A DNA stretch of 64,000 nucleotides, from positions 13,503,807 through 13,567,806 of the forward strand of contig NC_134031.1 of assembly GCF_964204645.1 (NCBI RefSeq). The letters are read 5' to 3'. The position numbers and the translations under genes were made by a program. Numbering within the stretch: position 1 is the stretch's first letter; every line of letters begins with the position of its first letter. The notes under the pieces were generated by a model. The model searched no databases. It was not told the DNA's origin and saw only the letters and a program-made list of their open reading frames with translations. This document shows, piece by piece, positions 20,688 to 53,273 of this stretch. The stretch comes from Tubulanus polymorphus (taxonomy: Eukaryota > Animalia > Nemertea).

Positions 20688-21285
20688 AGTAATAGGGATA
20701 ATAGGCTTTCAGATCAAAGGTCGAACGGTCGAGCTCATTAAAAAACAAAACATTAAAAGTAATTAAAAACTATAATATATTTTCATAACCGTGTGCATTT
20801 TATATTGAAAACTAAATATTTATTCTAAGATATCAATAATTTAAAAAGCATATTGTATTAAATCAATTGGTCGCTCCACTTCGCTACCGCTCCGCTCCGC
20901 GACCAATTGATTTATTTACAATACACAAATTCATATAATCAAATATATTCAAATGATAATAATTATTCTATTATTCAACTGAAATACACACGGTTATGAA
21001 AATATATTATAGTTTTAAATTACTTTTAATATATGTTTTTAATGAACTCGACCATTCAACCTTTAACCCGAAAGCCTATTATCCCTATTACTCTTAAAAT
21101 ATTCATATATATGAATAAAATATAAATGAATAACTTCTAAAATCAATTTTAATAAAAAATTTAGTATTAAAATGGAAGCAAATAAGTACTACTGTCCAAC
21201 ATGTAATATCAATGTAGATAAATCCCAAAAAGCAAGACACAATAAAACTAAAACACATTTAGAGAATAAATTGAAACTAGAATAT
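20688..21285 (+). repeat. Left TIR (598 bp); 20688-21092 is an imperfect palindrome
   Basis: Reverse complement of 38044-38631 apart from a few substitutions and a 10-bp indel. Confidence 0.93.
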
Positions 21286-21423
21286 TTACAGTTATATTCA
21301 GAACAGTTAACAAAAGCAAAGAAATTTATTGAATTATGGAATAATGATCCAAATAATGAACAATACGTTGAGGAATTTGATATCAAGGATCTGATGTTTA
21401 TACTAGAACATGATTCTATTTGA
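21172..21423 (+). CDS. Chimeric short ORF: pPolB N-terminal zinc finger fused to a copy of the HNH protein C-terminus
   Basis: First 38 aa match the ORF starting at 38157(-); LQLYSEQLTKAKKFIELWNNDPNNEQYVE matches the end of ORF 22765-23091. Confidence 0.7.
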   Translation: MEANKYYCPTCNINVDKSQKARHNKTKTHLENKLKLEYLQLYSEQLTKAKKFIELWNNDPNNEQYVEEFDIKDLMFILEHDSI

Positions 21424-22426
21424 GCCTATATACATTCAATGTACAGAGCTATGGAATAAATCTATAAATTCACAGCTGTTACAGCTGTTACTATGACACC
21501 GAGACTTATGACTCATTATTACAAACGTGCAGAGAGAGAACACTCTAGAACCGGAACCAGATGACGTGGCAAGAAATGAATATACGCTGTAATATTGTGC
21601 TCAGGATATTCTATCTTTCGAAACGAAATTAGGAGTTTATAGTTTACAATTATAAATCTAAATGTAAGTACTGTTTGTTGTAGTTATTAAGGCTATTAAA
21701 TATGAAACCTTTAGATATATTTAAGTGTATTTAGTATATCTTTTAGATGGCTAGAGTTACCGCTAATATCTTTTAGATTAATAAAACGCCATACGCATCA
21801 AGAAGTGATAGAGAAACTCAAGATACTCTTTCTGACTGAGGAATCAACAGCAATGGATATCGAACCAATAGAATCACCAAAAGATCGACGAAGAAACTAT
21901 ATAAGAATTTCAAAAACATTAAGACTCCAATGATTAAGTTTAATATTTGTTGATGTAGTTAAATATTTACCGGCAATTGAAAAAATGTTTGTAATTATAA
22001 ATTGTATTTATAGAAATCAAATGATTTATTGGAAGAAACGACTGAACAACTTGTATAATGTATTGTGTAAATCTACTTGGTGAATGTTCTATGTTCGGTC
22101 GTTTCAATTATGATTAGCGCATGCGCATTAAGCAAAAACGCTCCTATAAGAGCGGTTTTGCCTAGTGCACATGCGTTTTGATATTTTATGTCGGTCGTTT
22201 CTATTTTACAGAATTTACAGAATGAATATATAATTATGATTAACGCATGCGCATTAAGCAAAAGCGCTCCTATAAGAGCGGTTTTGCCCAGTGGTATTAT
22301 TTAGATATCAAGGAATCGAAACAACTTATCAAAAGCAACGAAGAATGAAAAAGGATGACGTTGGTCGAAGAAATGGAAGAGGATTCTAAAATATTAACCA
22401 ATTTAGTAAAAAAATATGTATAATAA

Positions 22427-23091
22427 ATGGAACCAGAACAACCACAAACTATCAATATTACAAATAACACTGGCGTTATAAATATATATTACAAGAAGTG
22501 TTCTAAATGTGAATTAGATAAATCATTAACAGAATTTAGTAAGCGTAAGATTAGCAAAGATGGTTTTCAATATTGCTGTAAAACTTGTTTTAAACTATAT
22601 ACCAAACAATACCGAGAAGATAATATAGAACATTATAATTATTATATGGCAGAATATATGAGAGAAAGATATCAAACAGATCTTAATTTTAGATTGAAAC
22701 AATGCTTAAGGACTAGATTAACACAATTATTCAACAAAAAACGCATTCAGAAACACTATCTAATTTGTTGGGTTGTACAGATGAATTCTTAAAATCATGG
22801 ATAATATTTCAATTCGATGATAAAATGAATATAGATAATCATGGGGATTATTACCATATTGATCATGTGTTACCAATATCTAAATCTAACGTGAATGATG
22901 AATACAATAAAAAACTTATTTGGAATTGGAAGAATTTAAGACCTTTAGAAAAGAAAGAAAATCAAATCAAATCTAATAAACTAGATTTACAGTTATATTT
23001 AGAACAGTTAACAAAGGTAAATAAATTCATTGAATTATGGAACAATGATCCAAATAATGAACAATATGTTGAATCTTTATTGAGTGGTTGA
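22427..23091 (+). pseudogene. HNH endonuclease with N-terminal CxxC...CxxC zinc module (one frameshift at ~22745-22790)
   Basis: KKCSKC...YCCKTC; LGCTDEFLKSWI...YHIDHVLPIS...NWKNLRPLEKKENQIKSN, an architecture typical of large-DNA-virus HNH nucleases. Confidence 0.8.
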
Positions 23092-23316
23092 AGAATAATA
23101 GAATTTAAATAAAATATAATAAAAATTACATACCTTCAACTATCTATTATTTCTATTTTAATTTTTAATATTTTCTTTTCAAAAAAGAATACTTTATATC
23201 ACAAATAAAAAATACTAAAAAAACAATAGCTAATACTAGAATTCTTTAGCTTTAACTAGCTAGTATCATTTGAAGAATACTTATAATATTTTTGTTGCTT
23301 TTTTTCTCTAATATAA

Positions 23317-23919
23317 ATGTCAAAGAAATCTAATAAGAATAGTATTGATATTGAAAAGACATTAGATGATTTGGGTATAAGTGATAATAAAGATACAGTT
23401 GTAACTAATTGTGCTCAAGTTAATTGTAATATTGATTATGAATACTATTTATATTGTAAGCATCATCTTGAATTATTAATTGCTGGCGGGAAATCTAAGG
23501 AGTTTTTAAATAGAATCATTACTTTTCAAGAACTAGATGCTATGAAACCAGATACAGTAATAAAATATTTTAAGATTTATGAAGAGGCAAGATTAGCTAA
23601 AATAAATGATTCTATTTCGAATGGTATTGTCAAATGTTATTCTAAGTTATGTAACCAGTTAATACCAATTGATGATGAAAATAAATTATATAGTGATTTG
23701 AAAAATGACTACTTAGTTATGACTGAATTACAAAAATGGGTTGGATATGCTTCATTTCAATTAGGATCGGTTATGACATTAATTTCTACTGGCGTCATAA
23801 CATTTTCGAACATCAAACCTATGGAATTTAAATCAGGTAAGAACGAAACAGATGTACTACAACCAAATGGTGAAACAGAAAATGAATCAGAACAAAAATT
23901 AACTAAAATAAATGAGTGA
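23317..23919 (+). CDS. Conserved Polinton protein of unknown function (ORF-A)
   Basis: Intact 200-aa ORF with TAAATG start; clear homolog at 50226-50834. Confidence 0.8.
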   Translation: MSKKSNKNSIDIEKTLDDLGISDNKDTVVTNCAQVNCNIDYEYYLYCKHHLELLIAGGKSKEFLNRIITFQELDAMKPDTVIKYFKIYEEARLAKINDSISNGIVKCYSKLCNQLIPIDDENKLYSDLKNDYLVMTELQKWVGYASFQLGSVMTLISTGVITFSNIKPMEFKSGKNETDVLQPNGETENESEQKLTKINE

Positions 23920-24310
23920 TGGCGTTAAGAAAAAGGCTAGATCCGAGAAACAAATTAAATGGGCAAGAGAATTAGGTAAAAGATCTTCAGAATTAAAAAA
24001 AGCTAAGAAAAAGAAATTAACTGATATAAATGAATCACAGAAATTATCTGATATTGATTCGAATGATAATCCATCTAATTCTTCTAATGCTGGAAGTAAT
24101 TATAAATTATATGTTACAATTGGATTAGTAACACTTATTATATTATCTGGTGTAATATATAAATCAAAATTCAAATCTGATGATAAATATGATTCAAATG
24201 ATGATCGGAAACTTAGTTATCCGTGTACAGACAGTAAACCTATCATACCAGAAAATAAGTCAAATTATAAAGCCATTGAAACTAAATCTAAATTATTATT
24301 AATGGATTGA
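23912..24310 (+). CDS. Basic single-pass membrane protein (ORF-B)
   Basis: Lys-rich N-terminus, TM segment LYVTIGLVTLIILSGVIY; homolog at 49925-50293. Confidence 0.75.
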   Translation: MSDGVKKKARSEKQIKWARELGKRSSELKKAKKKKLTDINESQKLSDIDSNDNPSNSSNAGSNYKLYVTIGLVTLIILSGVIYKSKFKSDDKYDSNDDRKLSYPCTDSKPIIPENKSNYKAIETKSKLLLMD

Positions 24311-24316
24311 AAGAAG

Positions 24317-25447
24317 ATGAAAAAAGAACAATATTTAAGAGATTTATATTATAACCCAGAAAGTGAAGTATCATATTCTAACGTTTCAGAATTATGGAAT
24401 AAAATTAAATCTGATAATGAAAATGGTGATGGTGCTGTATGGCACCCACATGGTGATATAAAATATAGTGAATTAAAATCATGGTTACAAAATCAACCAA
24501 CATATCAAATCCACAAGAAAATGGATAAAACTTATTTAACAAGAAAAGTTATGGTTTCATATATCGATCAACAATGGCAAGCAGATTTAATTGACATGAA
24601 GAACTTAGAGGAATACAACAAAGGATATTTCTGGATATTAAATGTTATAGATATATTCAGTCGATACGCATGGTCAATTCCAATCAAAAATAAAACTGGA
24701 ATAGAAGTAACAAATGCTTTTAAATCTCTATTTAAAGAAGCTATTCCAGATAAGATACAATTTGATGAAGGTAAGGAATTTTATAACAAACATTTCAAAA
24801 AACTATTATCTGATAACGATGTAGATTATTTTTCAACACACTCAGATAAAAAAACATCTATTATAGAAAGATTTAATAAAACATTGAAAACTAGAATGTG
24901 GAAATATTTTACTGCTAATGAAACATATAAATATATCGATGAGTCTATAAATATATTAGATGATTTAGTGAAAGGTTATAATAATTCTAAACATAGTTCT
25001 ATAAATATGAAACCTATACAAGCTAGAAAAGAAGATAATTCGGAAATAGTTTGGAATAATTTATATGGCGCGTTTGTTACACATGATTTTGGAGAACCTA
25101 AATTCAAAATTGGACAACATGTTAGAATATCTAAATATAGAAAAACATTTTATAAAGGTTATACCCCAAATTTTACAGAAGAAATATTTAAAATTAAAAA
25201 GATAATATTAACTAAACCATTTGTTTATAAATTAGAAGATCTAAAAGATGAAGAAATATTAGGTTATTTCTATGAACAAGAATTATCACTTGTACCAAAT
25301 CCAGATGAAATAGAATACAAAATAGAAAAAGTATTGAAAACAAAAACTCTTAAAGGAAAAAAGTATTCTTTGGTGAAATATAAAGGATATGATGATAAAT
25401 TTAATGAATGGATTTTATCTAGTAAAATTAAAAGAATAAATGAATAA
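24317..25447 (+). CDS. Retroviral-like (rve) DDE integrase with C-terminal chromodomain
   Basis: QWQADLIDM, IDIFSRYAW, QFDEGKEF, IERFNKTLK; C-terminal YKIEKVLK...LVKYKGYDDKFNEWI; intact. Confidence 0.95.
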   Translation: MKKEQYLRDLYYNPESEVSYSNVSELWNKIKSDNENGDGAVWHPHGDIKYSELKSWLQNQPTYQIHKKMDKTYLTRKVMVSYIDQQWQADLIDMKNLEEYNKGYFWILNVIDIFSRYAWSIPIKNKTGIEVTNAFKSLFKEAIPDKIQFDEGKEFYNKHFKKLLSDNDVDYFSTHSDKKTSIIERFNKTLKTRMWKYFTANETYKYIDESINILDDLVKGYNNSKHSSINMKPIQARKEDNSEIVWNNLYGAFVTHDFGEPKFKIGQHVRISKYRKTFYKGYTPNFTEEIFKIKKIILTKPFVYKLEDLKDEEILGYFYEQELSLVPNPDEIEYKIEKVLKTKTLKGKKYSLVKYKGYDDKFNEWILSSKIKRINE

Positions 25448-26061
25448 AGATTTATTTATATTTGAACCGCATAATATGTTAGTTACTGGAGTAACCAATT
25501 GTGGTAAAACACATTTCATATTAGATTTGTTAGAAACTATTTATAAGAATCATTTTGATAATATAATATTATTCTGTCCTACTTATGAAATGAATAAAAC
25601 ATATAATAGAGATATAGTTAAAATAAAAAAGTTTATTATATTAAATCCTAAAACAGTAAAAGAAAATTTAGATAATTGTATAAAAATAGCAATTGATACT
25701 TATAAAGGATCAAATACATTATTCATTATAGATGATTGCGCAAATTTACATGATTCAAAAGTTAGAGAAAGTGAGTTATGTTATTTAGCTTTCTCTGGAA
25801 GACATTTTGGGATAACAACATGGGTTTTAAATCAAAAATATAATTCAATTGTTAAAGACTTTAGAGAAAACATTAGATTTCTAGTTTTATTTTATAACAA
25901 AGATAAAAAATCTATGCAACAATCATTGGAAGAAAATCAAATTATACCTACTGAATTACATGATGAGTATATGAATAAATATGAATAAATTAAAGAATAA
26001 TAAAGGTTCAAAATTATTACTGAGACTACAATTTCCATATGAATATAAATTTATAAAATAA
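25440..26061 (+). CDS. A32/FtsK-HerA-like DNA packaging ATPase; a 10-bp duplication truncates the C-terminus at 25988
   Basis: Walker A GVTNCGKT, Walker B FIIDD, GRHFGI..LNQ motif; ATGAATAAAT is duplicated at 25971-25990, and the remaining tail matches the second copy. Confidence 0.92.
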
Positions 26062-26077
26062 CTATTTGTATACCTAT

Positions 26078-26162
26078 GTATTAGATACCCTAATACCTGA
26101 TACCCCATTAGATACCCTAATACCTGATACCCTAATACCTGATACCCTATTAGATACCTTAA
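26078..26162. repeat. Tandem GATACCCTAATACCT-type repeats between convergent gene blocks
   Basis: About 6-7 units containing ATACC. Confidence 0.8.
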
Positions 26163-26220
26163 ATACTTAAAACCCCCTTTTTTATTTACTATTATTTTAT
26201 ACAATTTTCAACCTTTATTA

Positions 26221-27039
26221 TTATTTGAGTGTTAGATAATCAATTTCTGAATCACTTTCACTATCGTACTCCATCAATTTTCTCAAATTCTCTACCGTAT
26301 CTTCTTCTAATTCTTCATTATTTTTATACTTATTCTTCGTCTTTTTTACCGCATCATCAATAGTTGTTTCATTGTTATGCTTACTCATCCTTTCTATCAC
26401 ATCATCAATAGTTTCTTCTTTATGTTTCATAGAATCTTTATTAGTGTTTGCTCCTAATATTTCATTTACAGTGTTTGATCCTAATATTTCATTAGCATCG
26501 GTTAAATCTAATTCATCTTTATTAGGTGTTGCTAATAATAAATCTTCATATATTTTTTCACCATTTACTTTTTTATTTGAAACAAATTTTGTAACATATC
26601 TAAATGGGTGTTCTATAAATTCTCTTAAACCAACACGTTCTATAACATTAGTAATATGTGAATTTGTATTCATATGTTTATTCCAATTTGATGGAGCGTT
26701 TGAAAATTCACCTTTACAATAATCACAATAATTTCTATTTTTACTAACATTTAATATTATTTCATTATTAGATGTAGAAGGTATTACATTATTAGAAGTA
26801 GTAGGTATTACTGTAGTAGGTATAACTGTAGTAGGTATTACATTATTATCAATTACATTACTTAAATTATCAACAACTTCACTTTTATTATTATCGATTT
26901 CTATTAGTTTAGTTTTATAAATTTTGAAAATAGGATCAAATATCAAAGCTATATTACAAGGTATTACATAATATAAACCATCATTATTTTCATGTGTATC
27001 GATGTATGGAATATGTTTATATACTTTACCTCCTTCCAT
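26221..27039 (-). CDS. Hypothetical protein with C2H2-like zinc finger and acidic tail
   Basis: YCDYCKGEFSNAPSNWNKHMNTNSH; VIPTT repeats; TAAATG start. Confidence 0.75.
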   Translation of the reverse strand: MEGGKVYKHIPYIDTHENNDGLYYVIPCNIALIFDPIFKIYKTKLIEIDNNKSEVVDNLSNVIDNNVIPTTVIPTTVIPTTSNNVIPSTSNNEIILNVSKNRNYCDYCKGEFSNAPSNWNKHMNTNSHITNVIERVGLREFIEHPFRYVTKFVSNKKVNGEKIYEDLLLATPNKDELDLTDANEILGSNTVNEILGANTNKDSMKHKEETIDDVIERMSKHNNETTIDDAVKKTKNKYKNNEELEEDTVENLRKLMEYDSESDSEIDYLTLK

Positions 27040-27071
27040 TTATTATATATATTTTTATTAAAGTTAAAATT

Positions 27072-28250
27072 TTAATACATAACACTATCTAATTGAGAAT
27101 TTACAATATTTATTGTATTCCATCTTTAGTGTTTTGTTGTTTTTTTCCAGAACCATGTAATGAATTATCCTCTGTTGTTCTAAAATCTAACCATAATGCA
27201 TATTTATTACCGGTATAATAATCAATTTGATTAATGTTACAATTTTCAGATGATTTTACTTTTTCATTCATAAAATGTTTTCTAATTTCTGGCCATTGAT
27301 CTATCATTCTCATTCCTTGACAAAATATTTTATTTGCTATTCCTTCGATAGTTATTTCTACTTTTGTTATTTCAGGATTATAATAATTATCAACATTTAT
27401 TGCACCATTAGTATATGTTGCAATGGTAAAAAAATATTAATATACCTTTAATAGATCTTCTTGGGAAGTTAATATTCTCATTAATTATTTCATCATTTGC
27501 ATTAATAGTTACGGTTTTAAATTTATCAATATAATCATATAATAATGAAAATCCTTGATTGTATTTAGTTTGAATTATACTTGAAATATTTTCATCAGTT
27601 ACTGTATCATATTCTAAACATATATTCGATAATTTATAACTCATATCTTTATTAACGCTAGATAATACAATTTCATTTACTGGAGCAAATGTTATCTCAA
27701 ATATAATATCTTCTTGAATTGCGTATTTATATAAAGGTGCATTATTATTTATCAATTCAAAGTCTAATGGAATTTTATATTTGCTTCCATATATACTTTT
27801 TATCAATTTATCTACAGCATTAGTTAATATTGCGCTATTAGCTTCTGATCTTAATTTATTTTGGTTTTCTGATTGGATGCCTTGAAATATCATATTATTT
27901 CTATTTTCTTTAGTTAACCATAAATCTTTATAATGCATAAATAAATTATAATCATCTAATGAGAAAACTGTTTCTGGACCAATCTTTATTGTTAACTTTT
28001 TAATCAAATATCTTCCAACATTATCAACAACATAATTATTATTATTACCGATTACTTATATATCGGCTGATAAATAAATACTATTTGGAACATAAAAAGT
28101 ATTTTGTGTTAATCTAGGAATTCTAACATATAAAGTTTCATCGGGATTAATATTAGAAGGGTTATGAGTAATTATATGATGTGATCTTTCTGCTTTAATA
28201 GCATTAGATATTCTATGATTCTTCGAAGGATTGATATAACTCCCACTCAT
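27072..28250 (-). pseudogene. Major capsid protein (putative double jelly-roll), frameshifted with a C-terminal deletion
   Basis: Fragments 28056-28250, 27408-28007 and 27110-27313; motifs IITHNPSNI..LYVRIP, LSNICLEYD, KYALWLDFRT...LHGSG recalled from invertebrate Polinton MCPs; size ~400 aa. Confidence 0.75.
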
Positions 28251-28315
28251 TTATTTAACAAAAAATTAATTATTTATTTTTAATCATGGTTACTTGATAT
28301 TTTTTGATATCATGT

Positions 28316-30042
28316 TTACTTGATATCTTTTGATATCATATTCACTAATCCAAAAATAATAGCACATACAACTGTAATTAAAAATAAAATAATATGTTCA
28401 GCAGCAAAGTTAATAATGTTTCCTGCAGATTTCAATATAAAACCAACAATTGATGCAATAACTCCAGGTAAAGCTGCAGCAGATTTTTTAGATAGTTCCC
28501 ATAAATATTTTGCTAATTTCTTTAAACCATCTTTAACTTTATCTTGTATAGAATTATTACCTGGGGGTTTATCCGGTTTATTGGGAGTGGGAGTAGGAGT
28601 AGATTTCAAAGCATTTGATATAGCTAAACCAATTGTTGTAAATAACATAGTTACGGCTGTTAGAATTGAAAGAATTGTTATTCCTTCTAACTTAAATAAT
28701 AATCTTATTCTGTCTTAATGATATTTCAGAATTTGGTTTTATCAACAAATCTTTAAAAATAACTTTTAATTTTTTAATATGATTAAGATCACATGATTTT
28801 AATAATATATCTCTTTCTTCTTTTTGTAATTTTATGTTATATTCTAAATCATCTATTTCTTTTACTAAAGCTAACTTTCTGCTTTCATAATCAGCTTCAT
28901 AAATTACATTTAAGATCTCTATTTAATTCTAATTGTTTTAATTCTTCATCTGCATTAGTTAATTCTTTTTCTAACATGGTTATTTTAGAAAATCTCATCT
29001 TAATATTAGCAATTTCATCAGCTGATACTTGTATACCTTTAATTTCTCTACGTGCTTGTTCAGGAAATGCTTCTAATTCTTCATCAGTTAAATTAAGAAA
29101 TCCTTTTTCTAGTAAATATTGCTGTCGATTTATTCCAGTTTCAGAACCAGATGTATCTGATATACTATTCATCAGTTCTTATGAATCTCTTAATCTATCA
29201 ATTTGTTTTTCTAATTGTAATTGACTTGAATAATTATCAATTTGTTGAGTGTCTCTTCTCGATGTTTCGAGTGTTGAAAATCTTAATCTATCTAATCGAT
29301 GTGCAAAATCTTCATACTCTTCCATTTCTGGATCAACATAAGTAGGATTTGAATTTGGATTTTTAAATGGTGAATATTTGTTTATATCAATTTTAGGAAT
29401 TGGTTCTTCTTCATTTATTCTATCGACTGCATTCCATATAATTCTGAGAAATTCTCTACCACCTTTTGAACCTTCAATTGTAGTTCTTGCTCGCATTCCA
29501 GGTTCATAAATATTTTCTTGATCCACTTTAGATAATTGAATTGATACAGTATTCCTATTTAATTCAAGATTATAATACCATGAATCATCTTTAAATTCTA
29601 AATTATTCGTGAAATGTGGGTCATCTTTAAAAATTTGTTCTACAACATCTTCTGAACCAATTTCATCTATTACAACTTTTGGTAATAATTCGTTAACAAT
29701 TGTATCTGTTACTCTAGATTTCATTTTATATAATTCCAAATGTTCATCAGGATATTTTTTTTGTTGTTCTACTAATAGTTTCATAAATCCTTCTCTTTCT
29801 CTTCTAGTTGAAATTCTACCACTTTCAGGAGCTTTAAAATATTTATATAATTTTTCACGTAATTCGGAATCATCATCATCATCATCATAATCATCATCAT
29901 AATCATCTTCACCTAAATTAGTATTATATTCTGGCTCATTATCATCATTAAAACTTGTTTCACTAAAATCAGGTGGTTGTTCATCACTTATTCCAGGTTC
30001 ATCTAAAGGATCCATTGGAATATCTTCTCCACCTTCTGCCAA
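28316..30042 (-). pseudogene. Long acidic/coiled-coil protein with C-terminal amphipathic and TM helices, in several frameshifted pieces
   Basis: ORFs 29179-30042, 28897-29172 and 28316-28648 are collinear; C-terminus KSAAALPGVIASIVGFILK...IILFLITVVCAIIFGLV. Confidence 0.7.
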
Positions 30043-30058
30043 TCACATAATACAAAAA

Positions 30059-31444
30059 TTAAAATTTAAAATATAATATTCCTCCGATTACAATTCCTAT
30101 ACAAGTTATAGCTAATTTAGTATTTTCATGGGATTTATTATCATCATTTAGTTTAATTATATCATGTTGAATAATATCAGTTTTTATATCTTCTGATGTA
30201 TTGTAATCTTTTATTTTAGAATCATTATTTAATTTAATATTCTTAGTTTTAGTTTCAGTTGATTGAATGTGTTTTTTATTTTTTTCACCTTCCATTAATT
30301 TTGGAGCAGTAATAATCTTTTTATTTATATCATTTACTCCAAATGAATTATTTATTGTTGCAGTTTTAATTAGATTATTATAACCAATTATGTTTCCCAT
30401 CTTTAATACTAAATCATTAGAAATAATTAATAGATTAGGGCCTATACAATAATTAAGCCTTACATGAGATTTATCTAAATAATTTTGATATCTTATAATG
30501 TTTTTGAATCGATCTATTTTTATCATTATGAATTGAATCTTCAAATAATACTTTGAATTGTTTTTGTGTATCGAATGATGTATTCAAATTTCCAATTATT
30601 GGTGATCTTGTTTCAACTTGCGCACCTAAAATACATATCAAATAAGTTCAATAGATTGATTTATTCTTTGTATTCCTGATTTAGTAAAACCTTCACTATT
30701 TTCTAAAATAAAATAAACCCAACCATTATTGTTTTCTTGTTTTAAATTATCATAAAATTTCGGTAATTTATTGAAATTTAATGTTTCTAAATCCTTTGTT
30801 TCTATTTTACCATAACCTAATTTATTATTATAGATATTATAAAAACTATTAGATGGTATGGGGAGTGCACAATATTCTGCAATCTTTTTAGGGCAAGGAA
30901 GTGATCTTATTGTTCCAATTTTTGTTCTAAAGTCAGAATTATTTATATCTATATTAAATTCATTGCAAATTTTATAAAACTTAGATAAATTGATATTATT
31001 ATCTAATTCTTTAAAATATCTAGATCCTGGTAAAGCGCACTCTAATTCATTTAATATTATTCTGATTTGAAAGTATGTATGAAATCTAAATAAACTTTGA
31101 ATTAATTTATATTTAGAATTATTCAAATGATCATTCCAACTAATTCCACATCCTGTTGTTGCACAATAAACAGCAAAATTTAATTGGTTCTGCCAATACT
31201 TCATATTAGATTTTAATAACCATTGTTTTTCATCTTTCAATTTTTTAAAATTAATTAAATATACATGAAATATATTTTCCATCTTTGCATTAAAAATATT
31301 AGTTTCAGTAACATAAATTTCTAAATTAGTTAATGAATCTAAAACTTCATTTCTATATGTAATATCTTTATTAAAATCTATTGCTGGAATATTATATTTA
31401 ATTGATTTATTATATTGGAAAGCTTTTGGAAAACTATCTACCAT
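30059..31444 (-). pseudogene. Conserved Polinton protein with C-terminal TM anchor, frameshifted
   Basis: ORFs 30638-31444 (WQNQLNFAVYCATTGCGIS...FHTYFQIR...RINQSI) and 30059-30544 (ending LAITCIGIVIGGILYFKF) are linked by a VLGAQVETRSPII-encoding segment. Confidence 0.7.
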
Positions 31445-31460
31445 TTATATAATTAAAAAA

Positions 31461-31895
31461 TTAATAATTTATTAATTCTTTTAATAATTTATCTTGTTCT
31501 TCAACTGTTATATGACCATTTAAACTTATTATATAATCTAGTGTATTCTTTAATTTATTAATTTCTTTAATATTAGTTTTAATTTTTTCTTTATTACTTT
31601 TTATATTCAATTTTGAACTTATACCGGTTAAAACACTTGAACTTAATCCTAACACACCAATTGATATAGCTAAAGGTGTTAATGGGCTGAATATTGCTAG
31701 AAATGTTATTACAGAACTAATTGTAACCGAACCACTTATAATAAAATAATATATAATTTTACTTTTTAGATATTTTTTCTTTTTAACTTTTAAGTCACTT
31801 TCAAATTCTAATATTTGTTTTTCTAAATATATTTTTAATTTAGTTTTATTTATATCATGAGGAATAATATCAATATTATCAACTTTATCTTCCAT
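31461..31895 (-). CDS. Two-TM membrane protein
   Basis: Two hydrophobic segments flanked by Lys-rich coils; TAAATG start. Confidence 0.75.
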   Translation of the reverse strand: MEDKVDNIDIIPHDINKTKLKIYLEKQILEFESDLKVKKKKYLKSKIIYYFIISGSVTISSVITFLAIFSPLTPLAISIGVLGLSSSVLTGISSKLNIKSNKEKIKTNIKEINKLKNTLDYIISLNGHITVEEQDKLLKELINY

Positions 31896-31917
31896 TTATT
31901 TAACAAAAAAAAAATTA

Positions 31918-32340
31918 CTAATAAGTAAATCTATAAGCAACAAATATAACAATAACAGATCCACCTAAAATCCAAATTATTTCATATTTCTGTTGTTCTT
32001 TACTCGGGGTATAATAATCTGATAATTTAGGTTTGTATAGATGTAATTTTTCTTTATTGGTTACCGCGTTATATAAACTCATTGCATCATCAACTGATTG
32101 AAAATCTCTATGTGAAATCTTCTGATCATATAATTCTTTATTGATGTAATCCATATAGTTTTGTCTCTTTTCTCTATATTCTTCTGCAGCTTTATTGTAT
32201 TTCTCTAACGCTAAGTTATGTCTTCTTTGTTCTCCTAATGAACTATTTTTATCAATATGTTTAAATAAATAACCACCACCAGTAAATGCCAAAGCGTTAA
32301 CAATTGCCGATCCTATAATAGTTATAATTGCAGAAGCCAT
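31918..32340 (-). CDS. Conserved Polinton membrane-associated protein
   Basis: MASAIITIIGSAIVNALAFTGGGYLF...RRHNLALEKY; C-terminal TM. Confidence 0.78.
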   Translation of the reverse strand: MASAIITIIGSAIVNALAFTGGGYLFKHIDKNSSLGEQRRHNLALEKYNKAAEEYREKRQNYMDYINKELYDQKISHRDFQSVDDAMSLYNAVTNKEKLHLYKPKLSDYYTPSKEQQKYEIIWILGGSVIVIFVAYRFTY

Positions 32341-32364
32341 TTATTTAACAAAAAAATTATGTAT

Positions 32365-32586
32365 TTATATGGGAGGAATATATTTTTGTTTTTCCAAATA
32401 ATCAATAGTTAAATTAGATAAAGTAACTGCTAATGTTAATTTTAAAATATCATTTATATCAAATCTATCAACATTAACACTTCCCATTTTAAATACTTTT
32501 TTTAATACCATTGAATAACCAACAGTTCCAACTGATAGTAATGCGCCATTATATAATCCAGTTATTATCCACTTATTATCACTCAT
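32365..32586 (-). CDS. Small hydrophobic protein
   Basis: 73 aa with two hydrophobic stretches; TAAATG start overlaps the upstream stop. Confidence 0.7.
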   Translation of the reverse strand: MSDNKWIITGLYNGALLSVGTVGYSMVLKKVFKMGSVNVDRFDINDILKLTLAVTLSNLTIDYLEKQKYIPPI

Positions 32587-32943
32587 TTATTTATCAAAAA
32601 AATTACTATCATCAAAATATTTAGTTATCTTATTTGTGATTAATTCAACATTTATTTCATTACTAGTTTCATTTGTATATATTTCAATTATTATTTTTTT
32701 AATATCTTCGATGATAAAATCTTCATCTAATTCATAAAATCTTAAAGATTCTCTAATTAAATTAGTAATCTTTTCTACATTTAAAGTTTCTTTATCTATT
32801 GTTGTTTCATATCCAAATGTTGTTTCATTAGAAAATGCAATATTTTTAATATGTGTAATTACATCATTAATGTTAAATTCCATTTCTTTCTCATGTTTAA
32901 AATCAAACCCAAAACATATACTCGGTCCAACAGTTATATTCAT
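32587..32943 (-). CDS. Hypothetical acidic protein
   Basis: 118-aa ORF in the packed gene array; TAAATG start. Confidence 0.65.
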   Translation of the reverse strand: MNITVGPSICFGFDFKHEKEMEFNINDVITHIKNIAFSNETTFGYETTIDKETLNVEKITNLIRESLRFYELDEDFIIEDIKKIIIEIYTNETSNEINVELITNKITKYFDDSNFFDK

Positions 32944-32959
32944 TTATATATCAAAAAAA

Positions 32960-33715
32960 TTACTCTCTACATCTTATAACTAATTCATATATCACAGGAA
33001 AGTTATTTAAATCAATTAAGTATCCATTATGATTTCTTATTTCTAATTTAAAATTATTAAATTTAGGAATGCAAGGTTTAAAATCACATTCTGTTAAATT
33101 ATAATTTATTTGAGTTCCAAATTGTTTAACATTTTTTAGCGGTAAAATATTTAGTATACTAGAACTACAAATTGTTTCTTTAGTTGCTTCGAAAGTTTTC
33201 GTAGGCTCGATTAAATTGCAATAAATATAAAAGTGCGTAAAAGGTATTATATTTGAGCTGCCTTCTGCGTTTCCAGTAACTGTAAGTGGTTTAATTCCTA
33301 ACATTTTAGCCAGTGGTTTGTTTACCATAAATTTATGTTGTTCATTAGATATCTTTATTCTTATTTTATTAGTACTATCAATTTTATTAAATTTAATTTC
33401 AAATACAGAAGTGCCCCCGATTTTCAACCGAGCTCTTCTATTAATTTCCTGCGCTAATGATTCTAAATTATATAATCCTGGTTTTAAAAATATATGAAAC
33501 CATTTATCTTTATTTCTCATATAAATCATAAACCCTCTATGTTCAAAAGTTTTATCCGATACATTGTAAAAAGAATTACATAAACTTATATTAACTAATT
33601 TTAAATCTACACAATTCTTGAATTCTCTATCTAATTGTACTAGTAAATCATGAGATTTATAATTTGTAAGCCTTCTAGAATCAACAAATATTCTGTATTC
33701 TTTTAATTCCGCCAT
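32960..33715 (-). CDS. Minor capsid protein (penton, single jelly-roll)
   Basis: IFVDSR N-terminus, PGLYNLESL, FYIYCNLI, SILNILPL, KLEIRNHNGYLIDLNN.PVIYELVI: typical Polinton/virophage penton pattern. Confidence 0.8.
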   Translation of the reverse strand: MAELKEYRIFVDSRRLTNYKSHDLLVQLDREFKNCVDLKLVNISLCNSFYNVSDKTFEHRGFMIYMRNKDKWFHIFLKPGLYNLESLAQEINRRARLKIGGTSVFEIKFNKIDSTNKIRIKISNEQHKFMVNKPLAKMLGIKPLTVTGNAEGSSNIIPFTHFYIYCNLIEPTKTFEATKETICSSSILNILPLKNVKQFGTQINYNLTECDFKPCIPKFNNFKLEIRNHNGYLIDLNNFPVIYELVIRCRE

Positions 33716-33732
33716 TTATTTTACATATTTTC

Positions 33733-34086
33733 TTATTCGAAATCTATTTCATGGTGCCCCTTTTCATTCTTACCTTTGTATACGAAATAGAAATCTCCAG
33801 AACATAATTCTTCTAAATCTTCACTTGATAATCTATGAAATCTATCCGGTAAATATGTTCTGAATTTATGTGTATTTCCTTTTAATCCTTCATATTCTAA
33901 GTGTATAACTAATTTATCTCCATAGTTATTAGTAACTGTAACAATATTTGTAATTAGATATTTCTTATGGATTGTTAATTCTGTTAACTTTTTGAATTTA
34001 TATTCTACAGATTTTACATTTGTTATATCTTTTATTCTATCTAGAAATAATTTGTTGTTCTCACTGTGTGCTAGTTTACTCTCCAT
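33733..34086 (-). CDS. Small protein downstream of pPolB, possibly an OB-fold ssDNA-binding protein
   Basis: 117 aa, T..YGDK...YLPDRF...YKGKNEKGHH; homolog at 49444-49762; function inferred only. Confidence 0.65.
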   Translation of the reverse strand: MESKLAHSENNKLFLDRIKDITNVKSVEYKFKKLTELTIHKKYLITNIVTVTNNYGDKLVIHLEYEGLKGNTHKFRTYLPDRFHRLSSEDLEELCSGDFYFVYKGKNEKGHHEIDFE

Positions 34087-34115
34087 TTTAATAACATATT
34101 TTTATTAGAATTTGA

Positions 34116-37100
34116 TTAACACGTTAGAATTCTTTTCATTATCTCGTTCTCTTTTGTTTCTTCTCTTTTAAATTTTAAGTATTCATCTAAATTACAACCA
34201 TAAGCAACTGTATGAATTCCATCATCTAATATATATCGTTTATCATCAAATGGGTTTAGACTTATCTTTTCAATTTCTTCAATAAACATTTCATGATCTT
34301 CAGATCTTAAACATCTCATCTTATGTTTTCTAACTTCTTCATTGAATATACAATTGATGTAATCTTTGAAATGAATATTCTTTTCTACTACACTTTTGGT
34401 TATTCCTTTTAACTTTTTAGCTTCATGTTCTTTAGTTTTATATGAATACATTTTAGATCGAATACCTATGAATTCAATCATTTCTTCACCACCTAATTCA
34501 TCTTTGAATTTACCGGGAACTTTTTTATTATCATTGCTAAACAAGTCATGATCTTTAGGATAATTACTAAAATCAAAATGATGTTTTAATGTTTTTAAAT
34601 CATCAGTTATGTTATCAGTTTTTATCTTTAATATGTAACTGTCGGTATCAAAATATAGAATTTCTATATGCTTTTCTCCAAAAAGTGGTTGTAATACATT
34701 ATAATAGAATTCATACATTAGTAATTTTGATAATTCTAAAACTGATGCGCCAACATAGATTGGTTTATTAAATTTCATAGAAGTTCTTCTCATCTTAACT
34801 GCAGCTAAATTTTCATCAAATATTCTGTTACCAATGAACTTAGGATATGTTTGTAAATGTCTAATTCTTTTACCATTACTAACTAACTCAATATCATTTC
34901 TATTTCTAATATTTTCACAAGTCTTACCATAGAATGCATTATTCATTAACTTGAAGAAATCTTTCTCGAAATCAGTTTTAGCTTTAGTTCTCTGTTTGGT
35001 GTTAAAATCTATATATTTTTCTAACCACTTAGATTGATTGAATGAAATATATCTACTATCTATGTACTTTTTTTAGAATCATTCCTTGATTTAGATAAAA
35101 CTTTAACATTCTATAATGTACTACATAATTATATTTATCTTCTTGAGTTACCATTAACTTTTCTGTATGAATATGATTTTCGGGTTTAATTCTTTTTTGA
35201 TAATTTGATAATTCTTCATGAGTTACAGTTTTATGTTCGGGGCAGTAAGCTAGATTTCTAGATTTAAATTTAATATGTTCAGGATATTCTAAATCTACAA
35301 CAAAGAAGTAACCAGTATCTGAATCATCTGCAATATCTAGGATTCTTTTCTTCCAATCAAATTTATCATTATTTTCATTCTGTAAAACTTCAGTTAATTC
35401 AAATACTCCATAAGGTTGTGGTTCCATCATTGCCCAACCATACAAATTATTTGCATCTATATATAATAACTTATATCCAGGGTTATCATTTACATTGAAA
35501 TATCTATCACCTAATACACCTGAAACACCTCCTCTTATAGATTTTTCAAATAATAATAATTGATCTATATTTGTTAACAAATCCATTTTTATATCTGTAA
35601 ATTTTAATCCACAATCCCATGTTAATCCTGGTGATGAATAACAATGACAAGGATCAATATTGAAATATTTTAGGTTTACATCTCTAAACCTTTCGAATAT
35701 ATCCGATAATAATAATACATCTGATTTTAAATATAAATCTACTAATTGTCCATGATTTTCTATTTTGAAATGATTCCAAATATTCAATGTTCTATTATAG
35801 ACTTCATCTTTAACATATTAATTTTTTAATTCATCATAGAATTGTTCTTTCAATAATTCAGTTATTTTAAAATCATTATGTGATTTATAAAATGAATATG
35901 GAATTGCTCCTTTATATCTCATTAATTGAAAATCATCAATATTTGGGTAATGTTGCTTTAATATTTTTAATTCATCATCAACTAATGATTTTGATAAGTT
36001 ATCTAATGAACTATTTAAAAATCTATATGAATCTATAAATCTTAGGCAACCAAATTGGAATGATATATAATTCTCAGATGTTTTAGCTAACATTCTAAAT
36101 TTATAAGTTGGTATTTTATCTTTTGAACTATTTGAATTTAATATTTCTATTTCATTATTGATTTCTTCTATTTTATAGCATAACTGTTTGATGAATGAAT
36201 GTGCATCATATCCTGATAGATTATGAAATATAACTGGCACAAAGTTAATTTTCTTAGCTTGTAAGTTACAATTCTCATGTGCAGCGCCTCTAAACTTTCC
36301 ATTCAAATGATCATGGTCTCTTACTTTTTTATCTTTATAATTAAATATCTTTTCACAATAATAACATTTACCTGAAAACACAAATTCTTCTTTATCTTCT
36401 TCTGTCATTATAATTTCTATATTTGTATTCAATAATTTACTAAATCTTATTTCATATTCAATTAATAAGTCACAAAAAGGATTGATAACATTTTCATTTC
36501 TATAATTATAATATTCACTTTTGATTAGTTCTGGATAATCAGATTTAATATATAACCCGAAAGCAGCAGCTGATTGATGAATCTTTTTAATAGTATTTGT
36601 TTTTGGTGGTTCATCTGAAAAATCATTTTCATTAGAATTTAATTTCTTTCTTTTATAATATATTTCTTTTCTATCTTGATCAGTTAGTTCTTTATTTAAT
36701 GATTCAAAATCTCCATATATTACAAATGGTACTTTATTTTTGTAATCACATTTTTTGAATTCTAATATTTTATCCTTTTCATTTGGTAAAACTAATTTAC
36801 AATAATCATGATTTTCACATAATTGTTTATGATTTAATAATGTATTTTCATTACTGAATCTATGTAAACATTTTCTACATAGATATATTTTATTATGGTG
36901 ATCACTTTCTGTTCTAAAGAATAAATCGATTTGTTTAATCCACATATAATGATTCTCATAATATAGTATATCTATAACATCATTTGAATCATAATCTTTT
37001 GATAGATATAAAGGTTCTAATGTATAATGTTTTATGTTGTTACCTTTTGTATTTGGTAATTTGATTAAATCAAATACATTTATTCTTAAATTATTATCTC

Positions 37101-38157
37101 TTTCTATTTTTGGGATGTCTTTAATTATAACAGGATACTTATCTATCATATAATTATTTTTAAATGGTTTATAATGAGTTAATCTACTAATATTATAAGT
37201 TGCAGGATGTAAACAACTTATTATAGCCCATAGAAAACATTTATCATCTTCATTTTGTACATTTATTACAGCATTAGTTTTAAATGGTAGTTTAATATAA
37301 CTTGTTCCATTTATACTATCATCTTTATAATAAGATAAATTATTTTCATCTATTGGTTTCGATTTAGTTAACTTATTATATTTTGTGTTATAAACATGTA
37401 AAGTCATAAATATTATCTCATCAAATATTAAACCAGATCCTTCAAAATATTTCTCTTCTATTTTAGTTTTTACTTCATTATAACATTTATCTAATTTATC
37501 ATCTATATGTTGTTTAGATATAATATGTTGTGAATGAGAATTTATATTATATATTGGTTTATCTTCAGATTTTATAAACTTTACTTTAGAAGATATACTT
37601 ATTTTAGGATATTCAACATCAGTAATTATTTTTATTATTTCTTTCATATTTTCTAAATGTTTTTTATTTTCTTCTAATGTTTTTCCTTTATGAAATTTAA
37701 ACTCGATAGCTGCTGGACCAATATCACTTTTAAATGCTTCGGTTATCTCTATATCTTTTTTATTATCTAATGAATTAATATATTTTCTTACATCTTCCAT
37801 GTATGGTCTTTTATTGTTTAATTTATTTTTTATGCTTTTAATTGTCTTCTGTTTCTTATCATTATCTTTATCAAAATAATCTTCACCTAAAATATCATTA
37901 TTCTTATTTCTAATATGACTTATAGATTTTAAATGTTCTTTATAATATCTTTTATCACTGAATGATCGATTACATGTATCACATTTGTATGTTTCTTTTT
38001 CATTCTTTAATTCATCTAATTTAGTTTCTAATATATCATCTTTATATTCTAGTTTCAATTTATTCTCTAAATGTGTTTTAGTTTTATTGTGTCTTGCTTT
38101 TTGGGATTTATCTATATTGATATTACATGTTGGACAGTAGTACTTATTTGCTTCCAT
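34116..38157 (-). pseudogene. Protein-primed family B DNA polymerase with N-terminal zinc fingers and endonuclease-VII-like insert; one nonsense codon (35818) and one frameshift (~35055)
   Basis: YGDFES (ExoI), FHNLSGYD (ExoII), YIDANNLYGWAM (motif A), KLMNNAFYGKT (B), YFDTDS (C); VRDHDHLNGKFRGAAHENCN. Confidence 0.95.
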
Positions 38158-38631
38158 TTTAATACTAAAATTTTTATTAAAATTGATTTTAGAAGTTATT
38201 CATTTATATTTTATTCATATATATGAATATTTTAAGAGTAATAGGGATGATAGGCTTTCGGGTTAAAGGTTGAATGGTCGAGTTCATTAAAAACATATAT
38301 TAAAAGTAATTTAAAACTATAATATATTTTCATAACCGTGTGTATTTCAGTTGAATAATAGAATAATTATTATCATTTGAATATATTTGATTATATGAAT
38401 TTGTGTATTGTAAATAAATCAATTGGTCGCGGAGCGGAGCGGTAGCGAAGTGGTGATTTAATACAATATGCTTTTTAAATTATTGATATCTTAGAATAAA
38501 TATTTAGTTTTTAATATAAAATGCACACGGTTATGAAAATATATTATAGTTTTTAATTACTTTAAATGATTTGTTTTTTAATGAGCTCGACCGTTCGACC
38601 TTTGATCTGAAAGCCTATTATCCCTATTACT
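38044..38631 (-). repeat. Right TIR (588 bp); 38237-38631 is an imperfect palindrome
   Basis: Reverse complement of the left TIR, lacking AGCGACCAAT at ~38453. Confidence 0.93.
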
Positions 38632-49160: not shown

Positions 49161-49443
49161 TCACATCCAGCCGAACCCGAAAATCCCTACCGACCGTATT
49201 AGGATTAGGATAAGGATTTTGTTAACACTCCAACCATTTCTATGGTACATGGAGGGAGACTTATACAAAGTATACAATATTAACAATTAACAGAAAGTAT
49301 AATCTTGTTTTGATAAAATATAGCAAAGTTTTTTAACAATATATACATACACTATTTAAGTAATTGGGAAATGTGGGTTTCAGGCCATAGGACGAGAGGA
49401 CGACACACCACTCATCACCACAAGTAATTTTTTCCCATAATAA

Positions 49444-49762
49444 ATGGGAGATAGAAAAGCATTCTTAGCAACAATAAATAACAGAATAAAACCAACAATT
49501 TTAAATAAAAAAGTTAGTCGATGTTACAAAAGAAATTGAACACAAAATATTGAAATTAGAAAAGTTAAAAACTAAATATGGAGAGAAAGTAACAGCAAAT
49601 TTAAGCTACTGTAATGTTAGTACAACGCGAGAATTTAAAGTATTTTTACCTGATAAATGGGTTTTATTGAGTACAGAGGAATTAAAAGATTTAGAAGGAT
49701 TTCAAATAATTTACCATGGGAAAAATGAAGACGGGCATCATGATTTAGAAGTTGTTGACTAA
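49444..49762 (+). pseudogene. Homolog of 33733-34086 (frameshifted)
   Basis: TKYGEKV...FLPDKW..LSTEELKDL...YHGKNEDGHHDLE. Confidence 0.75.
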
Positions 49763-49924
49763 ATAATTAAGAAATAAAATAATTTAGAAATAATAAAAAA
49801 ATGAATAACAAGAATCCGAAATGACTTATCTGTACAATTCAATTGCTCCGCGTAGATCGACAAAAGTAGTGAGATATTCAATTAATTAAAATAAAATTAT
49901 TTTTTTTGCTTTTTTTCTAAAATA

Positions 49925-50834
49925 TTAATCCATTTTTTTTATTGTGAATTTTGGAATTTCAGAAGTATTTTCATTTTTAATAGCAGTAGTTTCAGAATTA
50001 TTAATATCATAGATTTTATTTGATTTATTATACCAACTACACCCAATCAAAATGAATACAATTACAAATCCAGTTGTAAAATATAAATATCTATCAAATA
50101 TTCTATTACCAGAAGGAATAGAAATAACAATATTTTCACCATTTTCATTAACATCTTTATTATTTATTTTTTCTTTTATCGCTTTTTAAAATTCATATGA
50201 TCTAATACCTAATTGCCGAGACCATTCAATTTGTTTCCGAGTTCTCGGTTTTTTCTTCACAGTTAATCCTTTCACCTCTTCCACTTCGCTCATTTATTGT
50301 AGACAAATTTTTACTTTCAATATTCGAAAATGTTATAACTCCAGTTGATAATAGCGTCATAAATCCACCTAATTGAAATGATAAATATCCAATCCATTTA
50401 TTTAATTCAGTCATAACTAAATGATCATTTTTTAAATTGGAATATAATCTTTTTTCATCTTGAATTGGCAGCACATAATTACATAATTTACTATAACCTT
50501 TTACTACATTTTCTGATATCGCATCATTAATTCTAGCTATTCTCGCAGTTTCATAAATCTTAAATAATTTAATAATTTCATCTGATTTCATTGTATCTAA
50601 TTCATTATAAGTTAAATTTTTACTAATAAAACTTTTACATTTCCCAGATGCTATTAATATTTATAATTGATGTTTGCAATAAAGATAATATTCATAATTA
50701 TTGTTTGTAGTAATATCATTTAAAGCACCATTATAATCTGACGCTAATTTTGTTTCTGTTATACCTAAATCATCCGAAGTTTTTTCAATTGGAACATAAC
50801 TATTTTAAGACTTTATTTTCTTTTCACCTCCCAT
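49925..50834 (-). pseudogene. Homologs of ORF-A (50226-50834) and ORF-B (49925-50293)
   Basis: KIYETARIARINDAIS...LKNDHLVMTELNKWIGYLSFQLG aligns to 23317-23919; same overlapping arrangement. Confidence 0.8.
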
Positions 50835-51136
50835 TTATATAAGAAACAAATTAGTTGCAACTAGAATTCAACTAGAATTTAACTAGAATGTAACTAAAAT
50901 ATACTAGGTTAACAAGCTAGTTGAAATATTGTTGTTTTTATTTATTTTTTGTTGAATTTTATTTGATTTTTGTTTCGACTACCATTAACTAGAATTCAAC
51001 TAGAATGTAACTGAAAATATACTAGATTAACAAGCTAGTCAAAATATTGTTGTTTTTATTTATTATTTTTTTTGTTTCAACTGCCAAAAACTAAAATTTA
51101 ACTAGAATGTGACGAAAATATACTAGATAGTTGAGT

Positions 51137-51745
51137 TTAAATAAATTCATATTTAAATGGGTGTTGTAATCGAAATAATAATTTTGATCTTTTATCGCTT
51201 TTCAATTTATCCATGTATTCATTGTGTAAATCATGTGGAATAATATCATTTTCCTCAAGCGCATTTTTCATCGATTTCCTATCTTTATTGTAGAATAATA
51301 CTTAAAATCTAATGTTTTCTCTAAAATCTTTAACAATTGAATTATATTTTTGATTTAAAACCCATGTTGTTATCCCAAAATGTCTCCCAGAGAAAGCTAA
51401 ATAGCATAACTCACTCTCTCTTATTTTTGAATCATGTAAATTTGCACAATCATCTATAATGAATAATGTATTTGATCCTTTATAAATATCAATTGCTATT
51501 TTAATACAATTATCTAAATTTTCTTTAACTGTTTTAGGATCTAATACAATAAATTTATTATTTCTAGTAATATTTCTATCTTAAGTTTGATTAAATTCAT
51601 ACGTTGGACAAAATAATACTATATTATCGAAATAGTTTTTATAAATAGTTTCTAATAAATTTAATATAAAATAAGTTTTCCCACAATTTGTTACACCAGA
51701 AATTAACATATTATGAGGCTCAAATATAAATAATTCCTTGTTCAT
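51137..51745 (-). pseudogene. Packaging ATPase, copy 2 (in-frame stops)
   Basis: FEPHNMLISGVTNCGKT...IIDDCANLHDSK...SGRHFGITTW readable on the minus strand. Confidence 0.85.
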
Positions 51746-52871: not shown

Positions 52872-52901
52872 TTATATATCGTTAATTTTAACTTTATATT
52901 T

Positions 52902-53273
52902 CTAATATTGAATACTATCTAATTGAGAATTTACAAAATTTAATTGCGCGTCAGATATAATATATAATATTAATGTGCATTTTGAAATTTTTGATTCCTT
53001 TTTTCTTTTTCATGAATAATTGTATTCCATCTTTTGTATTTTGTAATTTTTTTCTCAGAACCATGTAATGAATTATCCTTTGTGTTCTAATATCTAACCA
53101 TAGTGCATATTTATTGCCGGTATAATAATCAATTTGATTAATATTACAATTTTCAGATGATTTTACTTTTTCATTCATAAAATGTTTTCTAATTTCTGGC
53201 CACTGATCTATCATTCTCATTCCTTGAAAAAATATTTAATTTGCTATACCTTAAATAGTTATTTCTACCTTTG
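52902..53273 (-). pseudogene. MCP C-terminal fragment, copy 2
   Basis: MRMIDQWPEIRKHFMNEKVKSSENCNINQIDYYTGNKYALWLD is identical to 27110-27313. Confidence 0.85.

Follow-up and report, generated by a model that had tools for sequence, protein, structure and literature searches.

Virophage genes are established to share the promoter of their helper (PMC6428243; 10.1101/2025.10.09.676808). The mavirus/EMALE (endogenous mavirus-like element) provirophages of Cafeteria encode an rve integrase, a protein-primed family B polymerase (pPolB), a capsid protein, a penton and a packaging ATPase, integrate in host chromosomes, and carry a post-replicative promoter of the type used by their helper CroV (Cafeteria roenbergensis virus) ahead of their genes. 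Here we describe a comparable arrangement in a 64,000-nt stretch of the genome of Tubulanus polymorphus (NC_134031.1), hereafter the window, which contains an integrated Polinton-type element of 17.9 kb (element 1) with nearly every gene starting at a promoter-like TAAATG motif. The best reading of this element is that of a virophage-like parasite of a pox-type virus. To our knowledge, the sharing of helper promoters is known for protist virophages only. Mavirus has a single promoter class based on the CroV TCTA motif (PMC5294985), whereas here the signature is of poxvirus type, comprises two classes and occurs in an animal host. A mavirus-type cysteine protease was not found in our element, and helper and reactivation are postulated here from sequence alone; the element appears to work like mavirus while lying outside the virophage class.

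A precedent for a poxvirus helper comes from Polinton-like viruses (PLVs) found in entomopoxvirus occlusion bodies, namely AHEV_PLV1/2, CBEV_PLV1 and Ca_PLV1, which have been proposed to be poxvirus parasites (PMC11296320). The case for these PLVs is built on co-packaging and gene exchange rather than on promoters (PMC11296320). They are approximately 12 kb in size and are described as having an adenain protease and no rve integrase, which sets them apart from the Tubulanus element by description rather than by capsid comparison.

An initial annotation of the window had proposed that the genes of the element start at a poxvirus-late-promoter-like motif. The 12 TAAATG and three TAAAATG starts that it listed are all present, as are the common TTTTTTGTTAAATAAATG at 28250, 31895 and 32340 and the T-runs at 31444 and 32943, a feature also found at 32586 and 23317. 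All five TAAATG starts reported for a second, diverged element (element 2; 49444, 50293, 50834, 51745 and 52871) are likewise found, at or next to homologous gene starts. For counting, we excluded the start copied into the left terminal inverted repeat (TIR; 21172) and the downstream pieces of broken genes, and took the gene annotated at 30042 from its first ATG at 30015, leaving 16 starts. Enrichment over AT-matched background, as the proposal predicts, holds against other ATGs, first-ATG-after-stop controls and shuffled sequence. Fourteen of the 16 starts are TAAATG (12) or TAAAATG (2), compared to 52 of 718 other ATGs (42 and 10, respectively; p=6e-14), TAAATG alone occurs at 12 of 16 starts versus 42 of 489 ATGs that are the first after a stop codon (p=9e-10), and in 20,000 rounds in which the 30 nt upstream of every start were shuffled, hits averaged 2.0 and did not exceed 8. 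The integrase and the 30042 gene had been named as exceptions; both are without the motif in the window, but TAAATG is present in some intact relatives (one of three counted relatives plus L001:7141 for the integrase, and three of three for the 30042 gene). Since relatives carry TAAATG at the 30042 start and host contigs differ there from the window copy, the missing motif of this gene appears attributable to decay of the window copy.

When the T of TAAA is used as the alignment point, the 14 motif-bearing starts split cleanly into seven T-class and seven A-class starts, a division that the initial annotation does not mention. T-class starts (capsid at 28250, 23317, 31444, 31895, 32340, 32586 and 32943) have six to seven T in -7 to -13, including T at -10 in 7/7, then a spacer of about 6 nt and TAAATG. 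Such a T tract is found at none of the 52 non-start TAAATG or TAAAATG sites. A-class starts (pPolB, 34086, the penton-like 33715, 27039, 22427, 23912 and the ATPase) have five to seven A's in the interval -10 to -17, with T at -10 absent in six of seven. The vaccinia late promoter is described as TAAAT(G) across the start codon, preceded by T's of which the one ten nt upstream is conserved (PMC11980589), or as T residues 5-7 bp ahead of TAAAT (PMC5294985). T-class starts fit it closely, as all seven combine TAAAT(G) over the ATG with the T tract roughly 6 nt upstream and T at -10. The vaccinia intermediate promoter has TAAA, lacks the -10 T and has an AT-rich stretch 15-19 nt upstream (PMC11980589); TAAA is recognized by the viral polymerase itself, with the G8R core at -26 to -13 from the start site (PMC12917281). 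The A-class would fit this promoter more loosely, its seven starts combining TAAA with an A-rich tract that lies nearer (-10 to -17) than expected from a 12-bp spacer and an AT-rich core near -20. The designation as late promoters therefore suits the T-class half of the starts, but the A-class half is nearer to intermediate. Vaccinia DNA-packaging genes also have mostly intermediate promoters (PMC11980589). No early-class poxvirus promoter was recognized in the element. Class tracks gene in related elements, being A at 5/5 ATPase and 3/3 27039-type starts and T at 10/12 capsid starts. Across the five nearest elements, capsid and core-membrane starts are T-class in 18/18 cases and the others A-class in 16/22, counts in which the membrane genes are presumed to be virion genes and orthologues are not independent.

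To place the window copy in its family, we used a 46-sequence capsid alignment leading to 36 metagenome loci and one metagenome-assembled genome (MAG) contig (numbered with the prefix L), from which the near-duplicates L002, L012, L023, L030 and L034 were dropped. A midpoint-rooted capsid tree of 29 rows, comprising loci with a capsid open reading frame (ORF) of at least 180 aa and the window piece, resolves a 16-row clade including the window (100/98), the long branch L015 and a 12-row sister clade (100/100). L025 was assigned to the window clade, and L032, L033, L035 and L037 to the sister clade, on the basis of identity and gene order rather than the tree. When starts were assigned by their homology with reference orthologues and without regard to the motif, TAAATG was present at 35 of 42 orthologous starts in the window clade and at none of 51 in the sister clade. 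The Kozak context, named in the initial annotation as a background to be exceeded, points the other way: the -3 base is T in 36/42 window-clade starts, opposite to the Kozak purine found in 42/51 sister-clade starts. The motif is kept at 40-44% GC (L006, L007) and through many gene orders. A set of 55 motif-bearing clade starts, picked on the motif and informative for the flanks only, has T peaks at -9 (49 starts) and -10 (42); one of the 55 is a stop-start junction, and ten belong to five pairs of head-to-head genes separated by 19-30 nt, each pair having TAAATG on both strands (L009:2017-2046, L010:370-399, L011:242-267, L013:788-819 and L003:5548-5568). Because the motif survives 44% GC, gene shuffling and head-to-head arrangement, composition, stop-start junctions and poly(A) signals are inadequate explanations for it. 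In the head-to-head pairs, a single tract serves as the T tract for one gene and the A tract for the other. Vaccinia has bidirectional late/intermediate promoters, which these pairs resemble.

The element and its clade thus carry a poxvirus-type promoter signature, as seen in promoter anatomy, enrichment, gene-tied classes, clade-wide conservation and loss of the Kozak purine. We consider it reasonably probable that a co-infecting poxvirus-type helper supplies the RNA polymerase for cytoplasmic transcription of the genes, as CroV does for mavirus. Two virophage-type features are present, namely helper-type promoters ahead of the genes and no matched RNA polymerase of its own: RNA polymerase, capping and transcription-factor families had no match in 25 window ORFs or in 22 window and relative proteins, in agreement with what the initial annotation had stated for the polymerase. 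Under this model, A-tract/TAAA promoters would fire first, once the intermediate factors of the helper have been made, expressing pPolB, the penton-like protein, the ATPase, the nuclease and the zinc-finger gene. T-tract/TAAATG promoters would follow, driving the capsid and membrane proteins. Initiation would occur within the AAA beside the ATG, where a 5' poly(A) leader would arise by slippage, and T at -3 could be tolerated because of such a leader. pPolB would then copy the genome, the ATPase would fill the capsids and the integrase would insert copies in host chromosomes, to remain there until another infection occurs. A fish poxvirus is reported to retain TAAATG (PMC4542343), suggesting that this signal reaches aquatic poxviruses. 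The observation on which the helper-parasite interpretation was based is therefore confirmed and is stronger than first noted; the interpretation gains from promoter anatomy, enrichment and clade contrast and is plausible in light of the clade-wide comparison, but its extension of late promoters to all starts does not hold.

Several points weigh against transcription by a poxvirus-type helper. The case is sequence-based, with no transcript, 5' end or helper genome seen, and it does not account for how a chromosomal copy would come into contact with a cytoplasmic polymerase. Neither the window nor the related loci yielded a gene of clear poxvirus origin, and seven ORFs are still without family assignment. 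Measured from the T of TAAA, the A tract (-10 to -17) is closer in than the G8R core, TAAA is frequent in AT-rich DNA (PMC12917281), and yeast cytoplasmic plasmids use the same TAAA initiator (PMC6211774). The clade contrast goes back to just one evolutionary change, and its p-value is therefore an overstatement; in addition, the root position of the capsid tree is not established. Lastly, an AT-rich branch of the sister clade (L018, L020, L028, L029 and L032) has TAAA and additional A's before the ATG at 8/11 starts, so the looser TAAA is not limited to the window clade; this pattern would be compatible with an A-rich Kozak context as well as with a related initiator. IMG/VR contains no relative of the capsid or ATPase, and a phage collection likewise none. 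Promoter-pattern scans of IMG/VR returned 0 A-class and eight unrelated T-class loci, giving no helper candidate. AATAAA is not avoided in coding strands of the window (58 versus 57.5 expected) or of the sister-clade locus L018 (31 versus 23) and, being lacking in both alike, its avoidance does not discriminate. TTTTTNT is the poxvirus early terminator. In coding strands, TTTTT[ACG]T occurs 11 times versus 39.9 expected in the clade and 9 versus 8.9 in the sister clade, although with homopolymer runs depleted in both clades and p<0.05 in one of four subclades only, this scarcity is a weak sign of poxvirus influence at most.

A cytoplasmic viral-type polymerase could instead be supplied by another nucleocytovirus, a pGKL2-like linear element or polymerase-bearing sister elements, which we regard as unlikely but as the most serious alternative. 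The yeast plasmid pGKL1 is without a polymerase of its own, and the core of the pGKL upstream motif is ATNTGA; this core lies within 100 nt of 8/55 clade and 6/14 window starts against a 22% background, so it is not enriched here. pGKL1 and pGKL2 otherwise resemble our element in pPolB, TIRs, strong AT-richness and a TAAAN initiator with slippage, differing in having no capsid or integrase and an early-type main promoter element (PMC6211774), and yeast pGKL elements are reported to derive from polintons (PMC11071308). Ranavirus polymerase promoters include TAAAT (PMC5294985), and no helper of any kind has been seen, which leaves room for such suppliers. Late genes of African swine fever virus (ASFV) use TATA (PMC11311002), but this initiator is within the last 10 nt of only 25/55 clade and 5/14 window starts. 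Both the ASFV and the pGKL motif were accordingly rejected, neither being required at starts. Three AT-rich giant-virus-like loci in IMG/VR have TAAATG at 5/26 ORFs, and TAAAT fused to the ATG together with a T tract is the pattern described for poxviruses (PMC11980589, PMC5294985, PMC4542343). The promoter anatomy is better fitted by poxvirus post-replicative promoters than by the tested ASFV or yeast-plasmid motifs.

Host nuclear signals, in the form of a compact RNA polymerase II initiator, a translation context suited to short leaders, or upstream-gene poly(A) signals that abut the start, are improbable too, and we rank them just behind a non-poxvirus supplier. AATAAA does overlap 9/14 window starts and 23/55 clade starts, which counts against a poxvirus-type helper as well as for nuclear expression, integration requires the element to enter the nucleus, and core-gene transcripts are reported for coral polintoviruses (PMC11131425). 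However, 32/55 clade starts are free of the overlap, the motif is present at both members of head-to-head pairs as well as at block-first genes, where nothing upstream needs terminating, T replaces the purine at -3 as described above, and a TATAAA box 20-40 nt upstream is found at only 2/55 clade and 1/14 window starts. That the promoters are relics of an ancestor with a pox-type helper, in a family that now spreads by nuclear copying without one, would be in keeping with the decay of the window copy and element 2 and the high copy number in host DNA, but we regard it as very improbable: motifs and classes are kept across capsids 52-83% identical, 20-44% GC and differing gene orders, and such conservation across diverged elements needs continued selection. 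An artefact of AT-richness and tight packing, with a stop TAA abutting the next ATG, is scarcely credible. Although GC content is 21-27% and 32586 is indeed a stop-start junction, such junctions account for 1/14 window and 1/55 clade starts, controls matched for composition reach 7-9% or average 2/16, and TAAATG is at 0/11 starts of AT-richer sister-clade loci; junction counts, matched controls and sister clade together led us to reject it.

Starts outside the window clade show other features. In L018, a GC-rich repeat of 35-40 nt sits by gene starts (123-156, 3068-3100, 3604-3646 and 4073-4115) followed by TA(T)AAA(A)ATG, and appears to be a different regulatory or hairpin signal. L015 and L027, on the branch beside the TAAATG clade, have TATA-like words directly before their ATGs, like the ASFV late initiator, although the starts are few; different branches may match different helpers. 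The sister-clade fragment L037 sits in an archaeal MAG contig and is most likely mis-binned eukaryotic or viral DNA.

The features of the two elements, in window coordinates, are as follows.

20688..38631 (17.9 kb), element 1, integrated Polinton-type element with AGT...ACT termini

20688..21285, left TIR, in which the promoter and 5' end of pPolB are duplicated (ATG 21172)

22427..23091, plus strand, HNH-type nuclease-like gene in two pieces (weak HNH matches), A-class

23317..23919, plus strand, 200-aa conserved core ORF with no function assigned, T-class

23912..24310, plus strand, 132-aa ORF with one hydrophobic helix, A-class, promoter within the upstream gene

24317..25447, plus strand, rve integrase with chromodomain (PF00665, PF00385), start without TAAATG in the window copy

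25440..26058, plus strand, A32-type packaging ATPase (PF04665, E 2e-12), 3' end frameshifted, A-class

26221..27039, minus strand, accessory ORF with a weak zinc-finger match, A-class, also A in L003 and L004

27075..28250, minus strand, double-jelly-roll major capsid protein broken by a stop and frameshifts, T-class

28316..30050, minus strand, conserved core gene in pieces (485 aa in L001), decayed start with the T tract remaining upstream

30059..31444, minus strand, conserved core gene, broken (442 aa in L001), C-terminal hydrophobic helix, T-class

31461..31895, minus strand, SLATT-like two-helix membrane protein (match below cut-off), T-class

31918..32340, minus strand, 140-aa conserved ORF with hydrophobic ends, T-class

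32365..32586, minus strand, 73-aa conserved hydrophobic ORF, T-class, the sole start whose TAA is the upstream stop

32587..32943, minus strand, 118-aa ORF with no function assigned, T-class

32960..33715, minus strand, probable penton (minor capsid protein), A-class, TAAATG

33733..34086, minus strand, 117-aa ORF adjoining pPolB with no function assigned, A-class, TAAAATG

34116..38157, minus strand, pPolB in three pieces, A-class, TAAAATG

38044..38631, right TIR, 98-99% complementary to the left and with the same internal palindrome

49400..53310, element 2, diverged and truncated, with g34086-like, g23912-like and g23317-like genes, ATPase, integrase and capsid 3' end

Gene content places element 1 among Polintons/Mavericks in the broad sense. 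The three pPolB pieces align across residues 194-1207 of the L017 protein, which matches PF03175, identifying a protein-primed family B polymerase, and an rve integrase, TIRs, a 6-bp target duplication, a double-jelly-roll capsid and an A32 ATPase are also present. With the stop read as X, the window capsid is 78% identical to the intact 415-aa protein P0002, whose model (pLDDT 85.7) matches capsid proteins of iridovirus, PBCV-1 (Paramecium bursaria chlorella virus 1) and mavirus, and is nearer to iridovirus/PBCV-1 (E 2e-15) than to mavirus (7e-11). The 33715 ORF, conserved in both clades, has a weak profile match to PBCV-1 P1v1 (E 0.3) and is probably the penton. No adenain/Ulp1 maturation protease family match was found in the window and relative proteins scanned, which would separate the element from Polintoviricetes groups 1/2, and the lack of a cysteine protease match and the iridovirus/PBCV-1-like capsid separate it from the Virophaviricetes (Lavidaviridae). 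Maverick-Polintons/adintoviruses likewise have pPolB, rve integrase, A32 ATPase, double-jelly-roll capsid, long TIRs and a 6-bp duplication, whereas our element has no protease, PLA2X or gasdermin-like match, other core membrane genes and 405-nt terminal palindromes. Polinton-3_NV, Polinton-N1A_NV and the Octocorallia, Hydrozoa and Bivalvia PLVs near Aquintoviricetes are also animal-integrated with pPolB and integrase; going by description only, the Tubulanus element may belong among these animal elements with non-Maverick capsids (PMC11296320, 10.64898/2026.06.19.733378).

Some genes of the family have features of their own. The 442-aa core protein (L001:2996-4321) has a confident model (pLDDT 83) with no Foldseek match and no Pfam, PDB or BFVD match, and over 1,200 homologues, one of them annotated in the bivalve Mactra antiquata; judging by the model, it is possibly an undescribed fold. 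In the 32943 slot, only the promoter region and the first 24 codons (32872-32943) match the L001 gene of the same slot and the remainder differs, as if cargo had been exchanged behind a fixed start; a structure search with this protein gave no useful match. Deoxynucleoside kinase genes are present at L001:10343-10981 and L007:2898-3377 (both minus strand) and absent from the sister-clade ORFs scanned. Such a kinase would be of use to a cytoplasmic replicator, and a homologue search returned four unnamed matches that do not indicate a donor. In the sister-clade locus L021, the slot occupied by pPolB in others (L021:9967-13596) encodes a protein of 1209 aa that carries an AAA_30/AAA_19 helicase domain, apparently a replication-module swap.

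Element 1 forms an AT-rich island (21-27% GC) in flanks of approximately 37% GC and is tiled by small ORFs over all 17.9 kb. The initial annotation correctly located a Polinton at 21165..38165, but its true bounds are slightly wider (20688-38631), as delimited by a 6-bp target duplication, GATGCC, on both sides (20682-20687 and 38632-38637) and inverted repeats of ~600 nt. Both ends are a 405-nt near-perfect palindrome (20688-21092 and 38237-38631) that the initial annotation does not mention, with a folding energy of -103 kcal/mol (z -20), four copies of a terminal 19-mer and a GC-rich stem at the apex. These ends could each be a hairpin replication origin or two mini-element copies. The palindrome was not seen in L017, whose one end on the contig has a short 24-nt hairpin. 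The window copy is decayed, as pPolB, the capsid gene and three other genes are broken, and the family is high-copy in the host, with 20,792 contigs of DNA run X1 matching it. Run X4, presumed to be RNA, gave a single short, partial contig, which does not bear on expression. Elsewhere in the window, host repeats occur at 2500-8000, 9170-9650, 13760-14990 and 54600-57700, comprising a 147-nt degenerate family, a 160-nt repeat, nested inverted repeats and reverse transcriptase fragments, and tRNA-like short interspersed nuclear element pieces are found at 3440-3580 and 46270-46690.

A search of titles and abstract openings gave no report of poxvirus-type promoters in animal Polintons. The main texts of PMC8502044, PMC11131425, 10.64898/2026.10.13.758929 and 10.64898/2026.06.19.733378 do not contain the word "promoter", and that of PMC11296320 makes no mention of promoters, motifs or transcription. 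The clade-wide two-class signature, for which the sister clade provides a built-in negative control, bears on how animal Polintons are expressed and on their dependence on helpers. It is conceivable, though doubtful, that the clade consists of provirophages of an undiscovered poxvirus lineage in aquatic invertebrates, which mimic its intermediate-then-late cascade and reside in the germline at high copy number as an inherited antiviral system triggered by infection. The signature predicts poxvirus-type viruses infecting these hosts, in which such a helper is as yet unseen and, if the provirophage reading is true, a promoter signature would predict the type of helper from sequence data.

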